A DNA stretch of 20,324 nt, filler included, from Trichodelitschia bisporula (lineage: Eukaryota), in assembly GCA_010356995.1 (NCBI GenBank). It is 11 parts of 11 records of this genome, joined end to end, with 100 filler letters (N's around TTAATTAATTAA, not from the genome) between each part and the next. Parts side by side here need not be neighbours in the genome. Positions count along the whole stretch, not along the records: positions 11,525 to 13,279 come from ML996725.1; 10 more parts are not named here. One strand, 5' to 3'. Below, in pieces: positions 5,577 to 20,324 of this stretch; positions within the stretch are counted from its first letter, which is position 1; each line of letters opens with the position of its first letter. Made by a program: the position numbers and the translations under genes. A model generated the notes under the pieces. The model had not been told where the DNA came from, did no database searches, and saw only the letters and a program-made list of their open reading frames with translations.

Positions 5577-5761
5577 TTCCCCGCATCCTCAACCCCGCAG
5601 CCCGTACCCCGCGCTATACCCCGCCATGTGACGTCACCGTTTTTTGCAGCGAACACAAAGANNNNNNNNNNNNNNNNNNNNNNNNNNNNNNNNNNNNNNN
5701 NNNNNTTAATTAATTAANNNNNNNNNNNNNNNNNNNNNNNNNNNNNNNNNNNNNNNNNNNN

Positions 5762-7603
5762 GACACGTCGCAGCGAGAAGAACGACAGCCTTACCAGCCT
5801 TATCTTCCTTCACCAGAAGAAACACCGATGCCCGCTACAAAACCAAGACAGGCAACGCGAGACATCAGCAGTAGCATATCCGCTTCGAATATTGTTGAAG
5901 GACCAAGAAGCAGAAAGAGAAAGGAGGCATATCTTGCCGAGCTCCAGCAAGTCAACCAGCTCTCTGCCTACCACTCTGCTTTCAGCGCAGGCATCAGTCA
6001 GAAACCGATGAGGCTACACCGAGATGGCCTCCCTCCGCCTCCAAAGGACTGGAAAGAACTGCAGCGTCACCAACACAGAGATGGTTTCATGGACGCAGCA
6101 AAGAAAGAGTACGAGGAACTCAAACGGCGGACTACGTTCCAAGCAGTCACTCGTCCGAGGAACACGAAGGTTTTACCCCTGATTTGGGTATTTACCTACA
6201 AATTTGACACGAATGGATACTTGCTCAAGTTCAAAGCGAGAATCTGCGTACGAGGAGATCTCCAGCCTGGGAACTCGGAAGACAACTATGCAGCAACGCT
6301 CGCGGCAAGGACTTTCCGCATGCTTATGGCTATCACGGCCATCGCAGATCTCGAAACTGCACAACTGGATGCCATCAATGCGTTTGTCAACAGCCCCATC
6401 GATCAAGTCGTGTATGTGGAATTCCCGGACGGATTTCAGATACCCGGCATGTGTCTGCAGCTTCTCAGAGCACTCTATGGATTACGACAATCGCCAAAAC
6501 TGTGGCATGGAGAACTTTCAAATGTGCTCACGAAGCTCGGTCTAGCCCGAGTGGACGACGAGATTTGCTTGTTCACAAATGGATGGCTCACCGTCTTCTT
6601 CTTTGTTGACGACATAGCCATGATCTACCCGAAGAAGCACACGCAGAGCTTCTATGACTTCAAAGCCGCTTTGATGAAGGAATTCGAATTCCACGATTTG
6701 GGAGAACTCAGTTGGTTCCTTGGAATTCGCATTCTCCGCGACAGATCACAGAAGAAGCTGTGGTTATGTCAAGACTCATACATTGAGAAAATTGCAAAGC
6801 GCTTCCACCTAAACGAGGGGTATGACAAGGGATACACGACTCCATTGGCACTGGAAACCCTTGAAAAAGCAACGCCGCTCGAGAAATCCACCCCGCAGCA
6901 GACATACGCCTACCAGCAAAGGGTTGGATCGATTCAGTACGCCGCGACCATTACCCGACCAGACGTGGCAAGAGCAGCAGCAAAGCTTGGTGAATTTCTG
7001 CAGAATCCAACAGCAAAGCATCTGCAGGCCGCAGACAGGGTGATACGATACCTCCACGGAACGCGAACGCTCGCAATCGAATATTCCGCTGAGAAAGATG
7101 GGACAATCTTTCAAGTCAGCAGCGATGCAGCCTTCGGAGATTGCACAGCATCGAGGAAGAGTACCGAGGGTTATCTCTTCAAGCTTTGCAACGGACCAAT
7201 CGACTGGAAATCTACGAAACAGAAAGCAGTCACCACATCGACGACTGAAGCCGAGCTACACGCCTTAGCTCACGCTGTACGAGAGACGTACTGGTGGCAA
7301 CGCATCTTTCACGCGATTAGCTTTGATCCAGGCCATGCGATTTCGAACGGATGCGATAATCAGCAAACGATTCGACTTCTCACCTCGAATGTGCCTCAGT
7401 TTACAACAAAGCTAAGACATGTAGACATAAACCATCATTGGCTTCGGCAAGAAGTTCAGGCTGGCAGAATTCAAATCCATTGGATTGAAACAGCCAACAT
7501 GCCAGCAGATGGACTGACGAAGGCTTTACCGATGCAAAGGCATAAAATTTTTGTCAAGCAAGTAGGACTTGTGGACATCTCAGACCAAGTCCACGATTCG
7601 TAA
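5762..7603 (+). CDS. Ty1/copia (family C) pol C-terminal part: reverse transcriptase + RNase H, 5'-partial, uninterrupted
   Basis: Frame is open from the contig start. RT motifs: WVFTYK...KFKARICVRGD, QLDAINAF, LRALYGLRQS, FFVDD, FLGIRI. RNase H motifs: SDAAFGD, STTEAE, CDNQ, RHVDI, ADGLTK. Confidence 0.96.
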   Translation, partial: DTSQREERQPYQPYLPSPEETPMPATKPRQATRDISSSISASNIVEGPRSRKRKEAYLAELQQVNQLSAYHSAFSAGISQKPMRLHRDGLPPPPKDWKELQRHQHRDGFMDAAKKEYEELKRRTTFQAVTRPRNTKVLPLIWVFTYKFDTNGYLLKFKARICVRGDLQPGNSEDNYAATLAARTFRMLMAITAIADLETAQLDAINAFVNSPIDQVVYVEFPDGFQIPGMCLQLLRALYGLRQSPKLWHGELSNVLTKLGLARVDDEICLFTNGWLTVFFFVDDIAMIYPKKHTQSFYDFKAALMKEFEFHDLGELSWFLGIRILRDRSQKKLWLCQDSYIEKIAKRFHLNEGYDKGYTTPLALETLEKATPLEKSTPQQTYAYQQRVGSIQYAATITRPDVARAAAKLGEFLQNPTAKHLQAADRVIRYLHGTRTLAIEYSAEKDGTIFQVSSDAAFGDCTASRKSTEGYLFKLCNGPIDWKSTKQKAVTTSTTEAELHALAHAVRETYWWQRIFHAISFDPGHAISNGCDNQQTIRLLTSNVPQFTTKLRHVDINHHWLRQEVQAGRIQIHWIETANMPADGLTKALPMQRHKIFVKQVGLVDISDQVHDS

Positions 7604-7657: not shown

Positions 7658-7757
7658 NNNNNNNNNNNNNNNNNNNNNNNNNNNNNNNNNNNNNNNNNNN
7701 NTTAATTAATTAANNNNNNNNNNNNNNNNNNNNNNNNNNNNNNNNNNNNNNNNNNNN

Positions 7758-9555: not shown

Positions 9556-9657
9556 NNNNNNNNNNNNNNNNNNNNNNNNNNNNNNNNNNNNNNNNNNNNT
9601 TAATTAATTAANNNNNNNNNNNNNNNNNNNNNNNNNNNNNNNNNNNNNNNNNNNNAA

Positions 9658-11424
9658 GATACCAGGACCGAGCTGCTACGAGAAATTTCTGACTGGGCCG
9701 AGGATCCTCACGGCAAGTTCATATTCTGGCTGAATGGCGTTGCCGGTACTGGAAAGTCCACCATTTCTCGCACGGTTGCTCGGACTTTCGAGGGAAAGGG
9801 ACAGCTTGGGGCAAGTTTCTTCTTCAAGCGAGGCGAAGGCGACCGCGGCAATGTGTCCAAGTTTTTCACCACTATCGCCTCTCAGCTTGCGATCAAGCGG
9901 CCCCAAGTGGCACCATTCATTGCGCGGACCATTGGCAATGACCCCACCATCGTCAACAAGTGTTCACACGAACAGTTTCAAAAACTCATTATTCAGCCGT
10001 TGAAAGAGGCTCCCTTACACTCCTCGCCTCTGATCGTGGTGATTGACGCGTTGGACGAGTGTGAGCAGGAGCAGGACGTGAGGAGTCTCATTCGGATCCT
10101 AGAACAGGGGAAGGACGTGACTTCAGTCCAACTCCGGATATTCGTAACCAGCCGGCCGGAGCTCCCGATTCGTCTTGGGTTCATCAAAATGTCAAAAGAA
10201 ACACATCATGACGTTGTCCTCCACGAAATCCAGCAAGGCACAATCAGGCGTGATCTTGCCTTGTACCTGCATCACGAGCTTGCCATGATACGAAGGGAAC
10301 ACAATCTCCTCGGCCGTACCCAGTTGCCGTCGAACTGGCCAGGAGATGAAACGATCCAAAAGCTGGTTGAGATGGCGATCCCGTTGTTCATCTTCGCTGC
10401 TACGGTGTGTCGTTTCATCGCCGATACAACATGGAATCCCAAGAAGACTCTTGCCGCTGTCCTGGAGCACCAGCATGAGGAATCCAACCTTGAGAAGACA
10501 TATCTCCCGATTTTGCACCAGCAGATTGCCGGTCAAACCAGGAAGAGGACCAAAGATAGGCTTGTGGCAGAGTTTCGTGAGATTGTTGGCACCATCATCA
10601 CTCTTGCTACTCCACTCTCCATTATGTCGATTGCTGAACTCCTTAGAGTTCCAGAAGACGACGTCGAGATCAGATTGGACTCGCTACACTCCGTCCTCAG
10701 TATCCCGGTGGACAAAGAGAAGCCGGTTAGACTCCTGCATCTTTCTTTTCACGACTTCCTTGTGGACACCGAAAAAGTTGCCGGTGAATTTTGGGTGGAT
10801 GAGCACGAAATGCATGGAAAGGTTGCCATCAAATGTCTCGAACTAATGTCCCAACCCGATCGCCTTAAGCAGGATATGTGCATGGTCCAGGCCCCTGGAA
10901 CGCTTCGCGAGGACATCGACAACCAGACGATAGGAATTGCTCTGCCACCCGAAGTCCAGTATGCCTGCCAGTACTGGGTACACCATCTCAAGAAGAGCAA
11001 AAAACCTTTGCCCTACCAAGGCGCAGTGCAAGTCTTCCTGGAGAAGCATTTTTTGCATTGGCTCGAAGCCATGAGCCTCATTGAGAGAACGGCAGAGTCC
11101 GTTGATGCAGTTCGCACACTGCGGTCGCTTTTCTCGGTATGAGAGCCGCAAAATTTTGCTCGCAAGTTCGCTAACACAATAGACCAAGAGCGGCAAAAAT
11201 AGCGACCTCCAGAGTTTTCTTTTGGATGCAGAAAGTTTTCTCCTAAAGAACTGGGGGATCATCGAGCATGCGCCGCTCCAAACTTACATTTCCGCCCTTA
11301 CCTTTGCTCCGGAGAGGAGTGTCATTCGAAGGCAATTTCACACGCAGAAGCCCCGCTGGGTACGCCTGCAACCTAAAGTGCAAGACTGGGATGCGTTTTT
11401 GCAGACGCTCGAGGGCCATTCGGA
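9658..11424 (+). CDS. NACHT-WD40 fungal NLR (HET-E/NWD-like), partial at both ends; exons 9658-11136 and 11183-11424
   Basis: TRTELLREI..W, Walker A IFWLNGVAGTGKST, ASFFFKRG, Walker B IVVIDALDEC, VTSRPE, PLFIFAAT, LHLSFHDFL, YACQYWVHHL, HFLHWLEAMS. 46-nt intron GTATGA...GCTAAC...TAG (11137-11182) keeps the frame. Then APLQTYISALTFAP...LQTLEGHS, the start of the first WD40 repeat. Confidence 0.95.
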
Positions 11425-11524
11425 NNNNNNNNNNNNNNNNNNNNNNNNNNNNNNNNNNNNNNNNNNNNTTAATTAATTAANNNNNNNNNNNNNNNNNNNN
11501 NNNNNNNNNNNNNNNNNNNNNNNN

Positions 11525-11923
11525 GTCACCTGGACGTCGAAACGTCAAGCAACAGTGGCTCTGTCGACAACCGAAGCAGAATACATGGCACTTTGCCAAG
11601 CCGCTCGAGAAGCAGCATGGCTACGACAATTGCTCGCAGGACTCGGATTTCGCAAGAGCAAGGAGCCAGTCACGATTCACGTTGACAACAAAAGCGCCAT
11701 AGCCCTTGGAAAGAATCCAGAATTCCACAAGCGAAGCAAGCACATCGACGTTCAGTACCACTTTGTACAACAGCAGGTACGAGACGGACGAGTGACGACC
11801 CCTTACCTACCAACAGCCGAAATGGTCGCAGATGGATTGACGAAAGCACTGAGTCCAGAGCTTCACCAACGATTAATCAAACACTGCAGACTCAACCCAC
11901 AGGTCATCGAACGAGGGTATTAG
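11525..11923 (+). CDS. Copia family A RNase H C-terminus (5'-partial)
   Basis: VTWTSKRQATVALSTTEAEY...VDNKSAI...SKHIDVQYHF...ADGLTK. Followed by PPT GAGAGGGAG (12045-12053) and LTR A. Confidence 0.94.
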   Translation, partial: VTWTSKRQATVALSTTEAEYMALCQAAREAAWLRQLLAGLGFRKSKEPVTIHVDNKSAIALGKNPEFHKRSKHIDVQYHFVQQQVRDGRVTTPYLPTAEMVADGLTKALSPELHQRLIKHCRLNPQVIERGY

Positions 11924-12053
11924 GCCGATTGCCTTGGAGGAAGGAGGTACAAGAATGTGTTGAGTTTTTATTACTTGTTTGATCTTTGACTACAGTTTGG
12001 CAGCGATCAGGACTATCTCGCGAGGTTCTTGTGCTTGCAAGTCTGAGAGGGAG

Positions 12054-12487
12054 TGTCGGCATACCCGATGTCGTGTTACCCGGAAATGCAGGCTTGGCAC
12101 GGCGAACACCGAAGTGACGAAGATGGACGACGCCGAAGTCCGATGAAGTTCAGGAACATCCTGGAGATGTCGGCATACCCGATGTCGTGTTACCCGGAAA
12201 GGCAGGCTTGGCACGGCGGACACCGAAGGGGCGAAGATGGACGACGCCGGAAGTCCGATGAAGTTCAGGAACATCCTGGAGACCCATCACGGATATATAC
12301 TGTTCATTCTGTAAACTAGAGAAGGCAACAAGCTAGGCAATCAATCTTTTCTCACACAATTCTTTGAGCACTTCCGCCAAAAGGAGAACCATCACGGATA
12401 TATACTGTTCATTCTGTAAACTAGAGAAGGTAACAAGCTGGGCAATCAATCTTTTCTCACACAATTCTTTGAGCACTTCCGCCAACA
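12054..12487 (+). mobile_element. 3' LTR of family A, split in two (12054-12167 and 12388-12487) by a nested solo LTR
   Basis: The two halves sum to 214 bp and reconstitute the LTR seen at 2434-2690 with one repeat unit. TGTCGGC start, GCCAACA end. Confidence 0.93.
12168..12382 (+). mobile_element. Solo LTR of family A (215 bp) with 5-bp TSD GGAGA
   Basis: Complete LTR TGTCGGC...GCCAAAA (terminal CA changed to AA), flanked by GGAGA at 12163-12167 and 12383-12387. Confidence 0.92.
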
Positions 12488-12820
12488 ACGCAATGGGTAA
12501 ACGCTTCTGGCATTCTTTCCCCTCGTTTTTCCCACATGGTTTTTGAGGTTTTAATGAGGCCAGACACTGCCAACCCCTTCTTGTTTTTGTCTCTCTTGGA
12601 GTTTATTCCATCCCGGGACATGGGAGGCAGTGGGAGCTCACTGTTGGTGCACTTCCATCCACCTCGGTTTGAGTGGGAGTGCTGAATTTGTGGCGGCAAC
12701 CTGGGGTGGCTGGAGCGGAGCCAGGAGACAGGGATCGTCTCCTGGCGAGGTATATAGTCAGCTCACTTCCCACTGCTAGTCGATCAAGCAACTCAGTCAA
12801 GTTCACACTTAATTTTAACA
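12488..12820 (+). mobile_element. 3' end of copia family B: 3' UTR, PPT GAGTGGGAG (12671-12679) and short LTR 12680-12820 (141 bp)
   Basis: 12490-12719 matches 14644-14873 (10 mismatches in 230 nt by eye), which follows an RNase H. LTR TGCTGAAT...TTTTAACA with TATATA at 12751. Confidence 0.88.
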
Positions 12821-13278
12821 GAATGCGAGAACCAGCAGGAGTATTATAGGATCAAAGATGAGCTCCTCTGTCTCGGTAAGAATGTGGGTGGTTCTTGTAG
12901 AAGATTATCAGCATGCAAATGCCAAACTGAAGTTATTTACGGTCTGGGATTTCGCTCGTATCCTTTGTGAAAGATAAGGTTGATTTCCAGAACCAGCTTT
13001 TGTCTCATCCGTTCGGAATCACGGACTAAGGAGAGCCTGACATGCTCATAACGAAGAACTTTGGGTAATTCCCCATGACCTTGTTTGGCATACACCGGCT
13101 CTAGCAATGCCGCTGGCCTTGTTGTCGTAGCCATCGAAATCAGTATAACCAAGGTGACTTGGACTCGTAACGTCTCGTTGGTATACTGCAGTCTGTCCCA
13201 TTTCCAAAGGTGGTTGAGAAGGATGGCCATATCGGCAAAGCTTAGGACAGGCTTCGGCTGCCGTTCTCTACTGAGTCC
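12821..13278 (-). pseudogene. DUF3435 tyrosine recombinase (Starship captain-like) fragment, exons 13278-12941 and 12893-12821, interrupted by copia B
   Basis: GLSRERQPKPVLSFADMAILLNHLWKWD...TLRVQVTLVILISMATTTRPAALL...LRYEHVRLSLVRD...LVLEINLIFHKG...RP, then a 47-nt intron (GTAAAT...GCTGAT...AAG), then TTHILTETEELIFDPIILLLVLAF, cut at the LTR. The pattern KP..D...lW..D..RvQ..T..RP.aL..KG..E...L.fdPi..LLalAf fits DUF3435 as I recall it. Confidence 0.82.
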
Positions 13279-13381
13279 ANNNNNNNNNNNNNNNNNNNNN
13301 NNNNNNNNNNNNNNNNNNNNNNNTTAATTAATTAANNNNNNNNNNNNNNNNNNNNNNNNNNNNNNNNNNNNNNNNNNNNAG

Positions 13382-14653
13382 CCGACTGCCCGAGAGCAGC
13401 ACGAACAAAACGGAGTTGCGGAAGTCTTCAACCGCATTCTCCTTGAAAAACTCCGGCCGACGCTCATCCAGTCTGGTTTAGACTGGAAATGGTAGCCAGA
13501 GATTCTTCGCTCCATTGTCGTGATCCGCAACGGGCTCTACAGCCCTCGGATCAACAAAATGCCCTACGAGGCATGGTTTGGCGAGAAGCCGAACATCGGT
13601 TGGATCCGGACGCTTGGGTGTGACTGCTACGTCGCGAAGACGCAGCGCCACAAGCAGAAAATTGGATCCGACATGACTGAGTGGTGCAAGCTCGTTGGCT
13701 TTGACGGATCGAAGAACTACAGACTTTTGAACGCGAATGGCAACCTCATTCGGTCAGCAGATGCTGTCTTCAGAGAATCTCGACCGCATATCCCAGAGCC
13801 GCCACGGAGCCAAGAGCTGAGGGAATCTGCATCACCTCATGCAGGAACCGAGCTGCCTCCTCCAGCGGGAGCAAAGCGATCGGCTCCAGAGCCAAGGGCA
13901 GAGCGACCAAAGCGTCTCAGAGTCTCTGACGCTGCTCAGCCCGCCTCTGCAGGGGGAGAGGATCATCCCCTGCGGGCTGATCTGCATTGGCGTCCCGAGC
14001 AGCGGCCGAAGCACTGCACACCTGTTCAAGTCGACGCGCCCCGGAGCGGCTCGGATGCCGACACCCCAGGAGACGCCTCAACGGACCTTTCAGAGCAGAT
14101 CGACTCGCAATCCGATGGCCATCAGTCAGAAGCCGGAAGCAGCTCCACCTTGTCAAACATCAACTTGCAGTCAACAGACTTGGCAGACGAGGAAACTGCC
14201 GAACCACGCACAGAACCCCGACTCCCGGTGCGTGAGAACAGGGGGCGTCAGCGTGGTGCGGGATACCTCAGAAAATACGCCTTCCTTGTTGCGTTGATTG
14301 GTGCCGCCTCCCACAGTTCCGAGCCGTTCGAGCCACGGGATTTCCAGCAAGCAAAGGCCAATGAGGTCCACTGGCCCAGATGACTGAACGGCATGAAGTC
14401 GGAAGGCAAATCGCTCCAAGGCGCCATCTCGCTGGCAAAGAACCCCCAATTTCACGCCAGATCGAAGCACATCACCATCCAGCACCACTTTGTACGCGAG
14501 AAGCAGGCAGAGGGGGTCATCGACATGCGGTACATCTCGACGAAGGAGCAGATCGCCGACGGACTCACCAAGGCCTTGCCAAAGGATCGCTTTCTGGTTT
14601 TTCAGGAAAGCCTTGGGGCTGGAGTGTCGCTTTGGGCGGGAAAGCAATGGGTA
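13382..14653 (+). pseudogene. Defective copia family B pol: integrase core end, linker, then RNase H C-terminus with RT deleted
   Basis: EQNGVAEVFNR...KMPYEAWFGEKP...LVGFDG. Stops TAG 13493-13495 and TGA 14381-14383 fall at expected Trp positions. EPRDFQQA...GMKSEGKSL is joined directly to QGAISLAKNPQFHARSKHI...ADGLTK. Confidence 0.9.
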
Positions 14654-14873: not shown

Positions 14874-14973
14874 NNNNNNNNNNNNNNNNNNNNNNNNNNN
14901 NNNNNNNNNNNNNNNNNTTAATTAATTAANNNNNNNNNNNNNNNNNNNNNNNNNNNNNNNNNNNNNNNNNNNN

Positions 14974-16447
14974 GTGAATGATCTTCCTGCAGTACTTGCG
15001 ATTGGATTGCAACGACGTGTTTGAGTAGCACGATCGCCTCGCCTATTCGCCCGTCTTCAAGGTATGCCGTCGCAAGTTCTTGCTCCGATCCTAGACGGTC
15101 TGAATGATCTTCCTGTAGCACTTTCCATCGGATTGCAACGACGTGTTTGAGTAGCTCGATCCCCCGGCCAGCTTGCCCGTCGCAGCTGTATGCGCTGGCC
15201 AGGTAATGCTCCGAATCAAGAGTTGCTGCATCATCTTCTCCGGAATTTTCTTTTCTCCATTTGAAAACTTGCTCATACCAGTATATACACTCCCGGCGTC
15301 TCCCATCCCACATAAAGAAGTGCCCAAGCAGCTTGCATAGGGTGTAATGGCTGGCCAAGTCTTCGCCCTGAGCAGATTGAGCAACTTTTAACGCGTGGGG
15401 CAGGTATTCTCGACCCATAGGGAAGTTGTCGTAGCTGTCCTGGGTATCTGGAAATACATCCGCAAGGTGCTCCACCGCCTCTTTCCTCGCCTCCTCTTTC
15501 AACAGGGGATGCTTGTCAAGCCAAATCTTGGTCGCCTTTTGCACGAGTCTGTGCATGTCGTACGTGTTGTCGTCCCGTTTGGTGAAGAAAGCGTATCCAA
15601 GAAGGGTACCAATGGCGCTCACCAAGCGTGCTTTCGTCGGCACTGGAGGCAGGATCGACCTAGGAATCGCCTTTGGCTCGATGTAAGACACGAAGGCAAG
15701 GAGGTTGGCAGCTGTCTGATCTGTCTGGCGGATTTGTTCGAAGGAGACGCTCCATGTGTTTGCAATGGCGTTCGAAGCACTCTGGGGTCGCGTACGGTCG
15801 GTGAACTCGGCGCTCATGAGATCGGCCATGTCTTGGTCGGTATTCCGCAGGAGCTGCAGATATTCGGAAATGGACATCGAGTTTCTCGCAATGTAGGCTG
15901 CTGCTTGTGCAATCGCCAAAGGAATGAACTCCAGTTCGGTCAAGAGCTTGTCTGTAATCGAAGCGTCGTAGAGTAACTTCTCTGACAAGGACTTTCGGAG
16001 AAAATCGAGCTAGTCTTCCTTGTTCATTTGGTTCAGTTGAATGATTTCGCTACATCCCAGCTCCGTTGCGATATGTCGAAAGCGCGTCGTGCAAACCACC
16101 TGGCCGTTCGGACTTTTCGGGAGAAAATGGACAAGATGCATGGACTGATCGGGGGACGGAGAAAATATATTCGCGTTGTCGACGTTATCAACAATCAAAA
16201 GCCAGCGCCCTGCCGTTTCGCTACTTAGATACTCCTTCACCAAATTCTTTACGTCCTTGTCCTTGTTTTGATCGGAAAGGAGAGACAGCTTGCTTGCGAT
16301 ATGGGAGCAGTCTTGGGTAAATGTTGCCTCGCTCACGGCGGAAATCCAAAACACGGAGCACTGGGGATCATTCTCTTTCACCCAGTAAGCGAACTGCAAG
16401 GCGATTTGCGTCTTTCCAGTGCCGCCGAGACCGTGAACTACCAGCAT
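14974..16447 (-). pseudogene. NB-ARC/P-loop + TPR fungal NLR, partial, with in-frame TAG at 16012-16010
   Basis: Walker A HGLGGTGKTQIA, VFWISA, Walker B WLLIVDNVD, VCTTR, LEFIPLAIAQAAAYI, TWSVSFEQI, YDMHRLVQ, YLPHA, then 42-aa TPRs (126-nt period, 14975 vs 15101). The two track ORFs are in one frame separated by a single stop (NKED*LDFLRKSL). Confidence 0.9.
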
Positions 16448-16862
16448 TNNNNNNNNNNNNNNNNNNNNNNNNNNNNNNNNNNNNNNNNNNNNTTAATTAA
16501 TTAANNNNNNNNNNNNNNNNNNNNNNNNNNNNNNNNNNNNNNNNNNNNCCGCGCACGCTATCTTCGCGTTGCCCATATTTAAAGGCCTGGAAGACATCAA
16601 CTGTTCATCAGTTTTTTCTCCAGAAGCCTGACAACCACATCAAGACACTTGAATGTTGGTGTTAGCCATCTCTAATCTGTCCGTGCGAGTCAAAAAGGAC
16701 TCGAAGTCAGATCCCCACTTCTACTTGCCCCTTGCCTCTCTACTCCAATTCCCTCACCGGAGGTAACTCCTCCAAGCCGAACCCTTCTTCCTCCTCCATC
16801 AATTCGCTTCACCTTTCTTCGCGCTTGCCTCACCGCCGCTCCGCATCCTCAACCCTGTCACC

Positions 16863-17803: not shown

Positions 17804-18305
17804 NNNNNNNNNNNNNNNNNNNNNNNNNNNNNNNNNNNNNNNNNNNNTTAATTAATTAANNNNNNNNNNNNNNNNNNNNNNNNNNNNNNNNNNNNNNNNN
17901 NNNAGGCGCTCATTGCGAGGCTGTCAGGGGCGTGCAAAAGTGTGGAAGTCACGATGGGTATGATGCAGGCATGAACAAGTTACTTCCACAAAGATCTATC
18001 TGAAGGGCGAGCCGCCAGACTCTTGAGCAGATCGCGCTGCCGTCTGCCTAAGGCATGGCGGGGTGCGGGAAGGCTGGCGTGACGTGGCAGCAGCCGCGGG
18101 GGAAGATCGTGGGGAGCCAATGAGGTTAAGGCCCGGCATTGGTCTCCCACGACAGAGGCCGACAGATAATGTCAGGGCCCAGCTAGGCTCACGGGTGGAA
18201 TTCAATTGGCATGGCCAAACAAACAATACTTCTATGAAGAATCTATGTAAAGTGGAGGAGGAGCAAACCTAAGTGATGGGTGGTGGTCTAGGCGTCGAGA
18301 CCCTT

Positions 18306-19116: not shown

Positions 19117-20324
19117 NNNNNNNNNNNNNNNNNNNNNNNNNNNNNNNNNNNNNNNNNNNNTTAATTAATTAANNNNNNNNNNNNNNNNNNNNNNNNNNNN
19201 NNNNNNNNNNNNNNNNGCTGTTGCTTGGAAACGGAGCGACGTTTGCACGGGGCACGGTCAGCACGGTGTGAGTGGGAGGGTCGCGAACACGGGGAACCCG
19301 CGCCGGGCATCCTGCTCAGCAGCGCCTTCTTCAATATTGTGACGAATGCCGTCTGTTGGGCCAAACCCGCCCCACTTCTCGGGGCGAAGGGGTCGAGGGA
19401 CCAAGCTTGCCGGAGGCGCGCCGAGGGAAATGTCAGTATGCTCGGAAATGGTTGAACTGGCTCACGGCCGTGACGAAGGTGATTACCTCGGGTGGACCAG
19501 ACCGTCATTAAGGTATGCTCCCGCAAGTGAACGCTACGACGACAGTTTGGCGCGTGCAACCGCCCACGCCTCTGCCTTGGGCGCATGCGTTTCTGCTGCG
19601 CCCGCCTTTCCTGCCGGCGGTCCTGCTGGCGGGGGCCGATATCTCGCAGCAGTGGTGTCTGGCTCACTGCGCTCCGGCGCGCAGAACCCTAGCTGCTAAC
19701 CTGTGCTCCGGAGACCGAGATACGCGGCCCGGCGGGTGTGAAGCTGAGCGGTTGCAATGTCAGCGGGAGGGCCATAGCCGCTGAACGGGACCGGAACTTA
19801 GCAAGCCAGCTGTATCCCGAGTCTGCCATGATAGCGCCGCCCACAGCGCGACGGCCGGTATGAAGCGGCGATGCGATGGATTTGGTTGCGGGTGGCTCGG
19901 GCGGCTCGGCGAGAAGGGGAATGAAGCTCCTCAACCAAGGACCATCGGCTGGGGGAGGGACGACCGCAAGCGGTGCGAGGATACCTCGCGTCGACGATGC
20001 TGCACGAGGGCCACTGGCGACAGGCAATCATCGGCAGCGCACTGATGCCTGATGCCGGCAGGACACGCATTTTGATTGAGATACTTGCCGCAGCTCGAAG
20101 CTGCGTGACTACGCCGCCGTTGATACCGACGGAGACCGAAAGCACACAAGAGGGAAAGCGAGGTGCGAGCACTGCGGATGCTAGAGCGGTGGCCTAGAGT
20201 ACATAGGTGCAGCCAGCCATTGATGGGCCAAAAATCCGAGAGCGTCCGCATGGCTCGAGGCGCTTGTGTGTGCTAGCCAGTGCACGGCGATCGCTTCACG
20301 AAGCTTGCCTGGTACGACAAATTC

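Follow-up and report, generated by a model that had tools for sequence, protein, structure and literature searches.

The minus-strand frame that ends at position 12821 of the window (the whole stretch of Trichodelitschia bisporula DNA analyzed here, 20,324 bases) is very probably a relic: a decayed piece of a captain-type gene that exists in many copies and was interrupted by a retrotransposon. About one fifth of a DUF3435 tyrosine recombinase gene of the Starship superfamily remains in it (137 residues, profile positions 131 to 264 of 681). The gene is interrupted on its 3′ side by the 3′ LTR of a copia element of a first kind (family B), in which a copia element of a second kind (family A) is nested; on its 5′ side, nothing but the end of a 1.75-kb scaffold cuts it off. 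This copy may have been inactivated by the LTR insertion and not by decay that preceded it, and its lineage may once have moved as Starships.

The window is composed of 11 small scaffolds, sorted by size from 2,818 down to 1,108 bp and joined by linkers of 100 nt each (N44-TTAATTAATTAA-N44). These linkers lie at positions 2819 to 2918, 5662 to 5761, 7658 to 7757, 9556 to 9655, 11425 to 11524, 13280 to 13379, 14874 to 14973, 16449 to 16548, 17804 to 17903, and 19117 to 19216, and features that cross them are artificial. The fragment lies on the sixth scaffold, whose features are collected in the table below. A probable reason why this scaffold was left unplaced is that the genome has multiple copies of the LTRs as well as of the recombinase gene. 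The right limit that the earlier note had drawn for the fragment, 13278/13279, proved to be the end of the 1,755-bp scaffold, followed by a linker, and is thus not a biological boundary; the scaffold end cuts the gene 131 codons short of its start in the paralogues. Elsewhere in the window, the first 117 nt of contig 2 (2919 to 3035) are 100% identical, in the same orientation, to the last 117 nt of contig 11 (20208 to 20324), and these two scaffolds may overlap and be neighbors in the genome.

Features on the scaffold that carries the recombinase fragment (positions are those of the window).
Feature	Positions	Strand	Remarks
Unplaced scaffold, sixth in the window	11525..13279	.	1,755 bp; artificial linker on either side
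Ty1/copia pol C-terminal (RNase H) tail, family A	11525..11920	+	Enters from the scaffold end
Polypurine tract before the family A 3′ LTR	11936..11947	+	GGAGGAAGGAGG; read from the sequence
Family A 3′ LTR	11958..12487	+	TGTTG...CAACA; internal tandem duplications; start possibly 11956
Family B copia 3′ LTR	~12494..12820	+	TGGGTAAACG...TTTTAACA (TGGG...AACA); adjoins the recombinase fragment
GAATG, candidate half of a 5-bp target-site duplication, family B	12821..12825	+	From sequence only; the 3′ flank alone is on the scaffold
Exon B, DUF3435 fragment	12821..12893	-	24 residues plus one base of the split codon; ends ...LVLAF against the LTR
Intron, 47 nt	12894..12940	-	GTAAAT donor, CTGAT branch-like site, AAG acceptor; in-frame TAA inside
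Exon A, DUF3435 fragment	12941..13278	-	112 codons and 2 bases of the split Pro codon; frame still open where the scaffold ends

Translation of the minus strand yielded, over positions 12940 to 13278, an open frame of 113 residues with the motifs KP, LWKWD, RVQ, TTTRPAALL, and HKG, and the frame at 12818 to 12904 reads ...LIFDPIILLLVLAF. Splicing exon A to exon B gives a peptide of 137 residues. To score it, we used a profile of 681 positions built from 12 full-length relatives. The spliced peptide reached 125.9 bits, compared with 99.9 bits for exon A alone, and it aligned without gaps to positions 131 to 264 of the profile, where exon B occupies positions 242 to 264 and contributes the additional 26 bits. 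Given this rise in score and the gapless alignment, the predicted 47-nt intron is well supported, and the spliced frame with its motifs, as the earlier note had described it, was confirmed. The same note had named the gene a DUF3435 tyrosine recombinase and had proposed a Pfam comparison as a check. The Pfam model DUF3435 (PF11917) matches the fragment with an E value of 5.4e-11 and 42.5 bits, against a curated cutoff of 25.8, over profile positions 3 to 80 of 418; this match is well beyond chance and bears out the identity. In addition, the blocks KP, W..D, ER.RVQ, T..RP, KG, and LAF stand in register with those of full-length relatives of 523 to 818 amino acids. A search of the window by tblastn with 13 full-length relatives revealed no further piece of DUF3435.

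The fragment is already cataloged, both as a public gene model and as a published match. The gene model (P0082, 97 amino acids) is identical to the window, belongs to a 1,755-bp contig, and has a precomputed Pfam match to PF11917 (DUF3435). The published match is a row of Table S3 of the starfish survey by Gluck-Thaler and Vogan 2024 (PMC11162782), scaffold39:1416-1754 on the minus strand, which equals window positions 12940 to 13278 minus 11524. One residue within the ER.RVQ block, the Thr encoded at 13171 to 13173, is the only one in which this copy differs from the two paralogues nearest to it, which have Arg there, as do 11 of the 12 full-length relatives. Every read-set contig that covers position 13172, in X1, X3, and X4, carries the Arg codon as well. 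The Thr is either a change peculiar to this copy, which was lost from the contigs, or a base error of the scaffold sequence.

The Arg of TTTRPAAL and the Lys of HKG occupy alignment columns without any variation among the 13 sequences (the 12 full-length relatives and the fragment). In the numbering of the full-length relative P0016, which spans the whole DUF3435 profile (E value of 7e-111), these invariant residues are R191 and K239, both within the fragment, and the nearly invariant R359, H381, and Y391 all lie beyond the LTR cut. The fragment's frame stops at LAF, profile position 264 of 681, and the complete active site is absent: the positions of Y/H-x-x-R, of the His, and of the nucleophilic Tyr are found downstream in the relatives and are missing here. 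The earlier note had stated that the insertion parts the first catalytic Arg from the downstream catalytic region, which is correct given the location of these five residues on the two sides of the cut. Because the Y/H-x-x-R, His, and nucleophilic Tyr positions are missing, the fragment cannot encode an active recombinase. What the note wrote as H-x-x-R reads Y-x-x-R in most of the aligned full-length relatives, as it does in HhpA, and the distance of 35 from Y356 to Y391 in P0016 equals that from Y381 to Y416 in HhpA. The Arg and Lys of the fragment would thus correspond to positions of the RKHRY pentad. A profile made from the 12 full-length relatives and exon A gave no match to a recombinase among solved structures, so this assignment draws on conservation, spacing, and the literature. 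The same profile gave weak matches of C2H2 zinc fingers to the C-terminal tail (best E value, 0.0096); in P0011, P0016, P0019, P0043, and others, the C-terminal ∼70 residues are rich in Cys and His and weakly resemble the C2H2 fingers of ZIC3 and WT1.

On the other side of the junction lie two copia LTRs. The pol tail of family A was recognized by comparison with the copia pol on contig 3 (35% identity, E value of 6e-24, to residues 480 to 603 of the open reading frame at 5762 to 7600, which lie downstream of the RVT_2 domain), and Pfam gave nothing significant on 11525 to 11920. Contig 1 contains a family A LTR that is 98 to 99% identical over 12236 to 12487, ends with CAACA, and is followed by the copia-type primer-binding site GGTTATGAGCCCGGG. 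The family B LTR is 95% identical over 233 nt to 14641 to 14873 in contig 7, where it follows a copia pol tail and a purine tract. Given that the family A LTR ends at 12487 and the family B LTR starts six bases later, the structure is a nested one, in which family A went into the family B element immediately before its 3′ LTR. What seems to be a single LTR of 863 bp at 11958 to 12820 is the family A LTR plus the family B LTR. Read-set contig depth was not used as a measure of copy number; its sum over the last ∼140 nt of the family B LTR (12680 to 12820) is far above that over 12600 to 12680, and many copies start near 12679 to 12684, which suggests that 12680 to 12820 is a module common to several LTR variants. 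The copia element of contig 7 has an integrase SH3-like domain at 13496 to about 13800 and a pol C-terminal tail at about 14418 to 14600, with no reverse transcriptase between these two in the region 13496 to 14640, and this copy looks internally deleted.

The earlier note had placed the end of the frame exactly at the CA terminus of a copia LTR at 12820, and this was reproduced in independent read sets. The last codon of the fragment (Phe) ends at 12821, and the LTR ends with ...TTTTAACA at 12820. Directly after 12820, copies of the LTR run into unrelated flanks in the contigs of public read sets, 6 copies in X1, 5 in X3, and 3 in X4 (X3 and X4 are RNA by guess only), and in one 5′ copy of the LTR the sequence runs on into the copia-type primer-binding site GTTATGAGCCCGGG... 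Since the scaffold is tiny, unplaced, and made up mostly of repeats, and since contig ends of the window fall within repeats, one could suppose that LTR and recombinase were joined by the assembler at a repeat. Such a chimera is very improbable. Record 21 of X4, from another sample and study, spans 12781 to 12895 with 1 mismatch and reaches 40 nt beyond the junction in one direction and 75 nt in the other; the junction is therefore no assembly chimera. Record 11 of X3 (556 nt) is 97% identical over 12821 to 13052 and then continues with 324 nt unlike the LTR; it is therefore a paralogue without the insertion, and it parts from the scaffold exactly at the LTR end. Short contigs of X5, a run under a second organism label, also cross 12820/12821, with 7 nt on the LTR side. 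Bridging was counted only at 31 nt or more; X1 record 4 and X5 records 29 and 30 fall short of this, extending 19 and 7 nt into the LTR, respectively, and were not counted as bridges.

An exhaustive search of 1.84 billion representative proteins returned 76 proteins at E values of 1e-3 or below and only 3 at 1e-10 or below, all of these 3 being T. bisporula models. The best full-length relatives are only 32 to 39% identical to the fragment; five of them were traced to their sources, which are lichen-forming, rock-inhabiting, and other ascomycetes. In T. bisporula itself, seven close models of 79 to 215 amino acids are spread over as many contigs. By length (with identity to the fragment), they measure 79 (99%), 215 (96%), 215 (86%), 213 (82%), 96 (83%), 97 (80%), and 110 (51%) amino acids, where the values for the models of 96 and 97 amino acids refer to the whole alignment and rise to about 92 to 94% before a frameshift. 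A frameshift after VRL is common to two of the models, and three “partial” models stop at the same spot, although this shared end point could reflect a habit of gene calling and not a common lesion. Taking the 8 rows of Table S3 together with model 531149, which is not among them, at least nine loci are related to the fragment, with protein identities of 80 to 99% for all but one (51%). None of them is full length, either in the gene models or in the published table.

The family to which these loci belong looks like a decaying repeat. Of the 26 variants of exon A among paralogous contigs, the 19 that were listed were counted by hand: 3, 9, and 7 of them affect the first, second, and third codon positions, respectively, which is no sign of purifying selection. 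One set of paralogous contigs has a 1-nt deletion at 13071, and 26 of the 33 differences in X1 contigs are transitions, from which no RIP is deduced. The state of the relatives bears on the claim of the earlier note that the recombinase was knocked out by a retrotransposon. The cut by a copia LTR at 12820/12821 stood, and with its 137 codons open and its splice signals good, this copy may have been intact when the LTR landed. “Knocked out” may nevertheless overstate the case, because the relatives in this genome are all short, partial, or frameshifted, and this copy could have been dead earlier.

A rival interpretation, along the lines of the earlier note, is that the fragment comes from the working or recently derelict captain at the 5′ end of a cargo-carrying Starship, which copia disabled, leaving a nonautonomous giant element that the assembly did not place. 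We regard this as unlikely. In its favor, the frame is open over 137 codons with an intact intron, and the LTR interrupts it at a boundary sharp to a single base, with a paralogue that is free of the insertion. Starships were described by Gluck-Thaler et al. 2022 (PMC9156397) as regions bounded by target-site duplications whose 5′ end is occupied by a DUF3435 gene, and such genes define their captains (PMC9156397 and PMC10104507). Moreover, paralogues are placed in the Phoenix family of the Starship superfamily: Table S4 of PMC11162782 lists 534970 (P0001, 86% identical) and 522931 under fam01, the family that its Table 1 names Phoenix. On the other hand, neither an element end nor cargo nor an empty site is present on the 1.75-kb scaffold, and the published size range of Starships is 15 to 511 kb (PMC11162782). 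The relatives are partial or frameshifted, and the substitutions among copies lack the excess at third positions. The published surveys point in the same direction: none of the 8 T. bisporula “tyr” matches in Table S3, of 258 to 1,616 nt, is full length, the median YR having 812 amino acids, and Table S8 gives this species a tyrCount of 3 and an elementCount of 0 (PMC11162782). This zero is weak evidence against a Starship, as the species was represented by one genome and the method needs an empty site. The survey of PMC9156397, whose tree already includes three T. bisporula sequences, had 1,890 DUF3435 homologues, and it linked only some of them to Starship or Starship-like regions, of which there were 194. 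A full-text literature search for Trichodelitschia together with Starship found no paper, the species appearing only in supplementary tables. The statement of the earlier note that the element would be nonautonomous is speculation.

Besides large cargo, co-location with DUF3723, ferric reductase, patatin-like, or NLR genes marks a Starship, and the scaffold of the fragment has nothing else on it. Pieces of NLR-type genes were observed on two other scaffolds of the window, at 9658 to 11139 (plus strand) and 14975 to 16447 (minus strand). One has NPHP3_N/NACHT, and the other has NB-ARC/NACHT together with TPR_10/TPR_12 and a 126-nt tandem repeat at 14975 to 15226. They are unlinked to the recombinase fragment and thus provide no evidence of Starship cargo.

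A different history would be that the lineage spread as a compact, multicopy “solo captain,” Crypton-like in its behavior, or as nonautonomous copies moved in trans, with the fragment as one of the decayed copies. The number of loci and their close similarity are compatible with such a spread, and the frameshift and stop that some copies have in common could mean that copying went on after inactivation. The authors of the starfish survey consider that many predicted YRs may be pseudogenes, with “solo” captains as another, unclear possibility for those assigned to no element (PMC11162782). The same picture would result, however, from segmental duplication or from a number of old Starship insertions that later decayed, and the common end points may be artifacts of the gene models, so we hold this history to be improbable. 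It is similarly doubtful that the at least nine loci record a burst, specific to this species, of a captain lineage of the Phoenix family, some of them apparently copied after the common frameshift. If there was such a burst, captain-derived sequences would have spread as compact or nonautonomous multicopy elements and not as rare giant Starships, a “solo captain” mode that the starfish authors raised as an open question (PMC11162782).

As a decayed, interrupted copy, the fragment has little significance in itself: relics of captain-type recombinases are common in Pezizomycotina genomes, and this one was already listed. What is new is a detail of an ordinary kind, namely, that the gene was truncated on its 3′ side by the clean insertion of a copia LTR, nested with a second copia element. 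An intact sister copy within a delimited Starship, or a spread as small elements, would bear on whether captains can move alone.

With regard to known systems, the LTRs resemble those of Ty1/copia retrotransposons in their TG...CA ends, their polypurine tract, and the copia-type primer-binding site that follows 5′ LTR copies, as well as in the integrase that precedes the RNase H tail in contig 7 and the homologous tail after RVT_2 in contig 3. They differ from a simple copia insertion in the nesting of family A within family B; moreover, the scaffold contains just the 3′ part of the element, and the target-site duplication is a candidate. The fragment shares with the Phoenix captains (family 1, clade 1) a PF11917 match above the cutoff and conserved blocks in register, and two of its paralogues (86% and 51% identical) carry the fam01 label in the table of PMC11162782; its own Phoenix label is borrowed from these tabulated paralogues and not from a tree. 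Unlike those captains, it covers ∼20% of the protein, without Y/H-x-x-R, His, and Tyr and without the context of an element. HhpA, the captain of the Starship Hephaestus and the only functionally tested captain, has a Tyr at the usual His position (Y381), the nucleophile Y416, and an RKHRY pentad (PNAS 2023, PMC10104507). It is of the same superfamily, and the full-length relatives of the fragment mostly share its Tyr at the usual His position and the 35-residue spacing; however, HhpA is intact and moves its own element, whereas the fragment lacks the whole region mutated in HhpA (Y381 and Y416). Orphan or pseudogenized captains, such as that of Wallaby with its many premature stops and the “solo” YRs that are assigned to no element, resemble the fragment in being nonfunctional and in having no delimited element (PMC11162782), although the lesion of the fragment is an LTR-retrotransposon insertion plus a scaffold break and not stop codons. 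Finally, Crypton DNA transposons resemble the fragment in being fungal mobile elements with an intron-bearing tyrosine recombinase gene, and DUF3435 repeats were initially annotated as Cryptons; yet DUF3435 captains form a clade of their own, equally distant from Crypton and bacterial YRs (PMC9156397).
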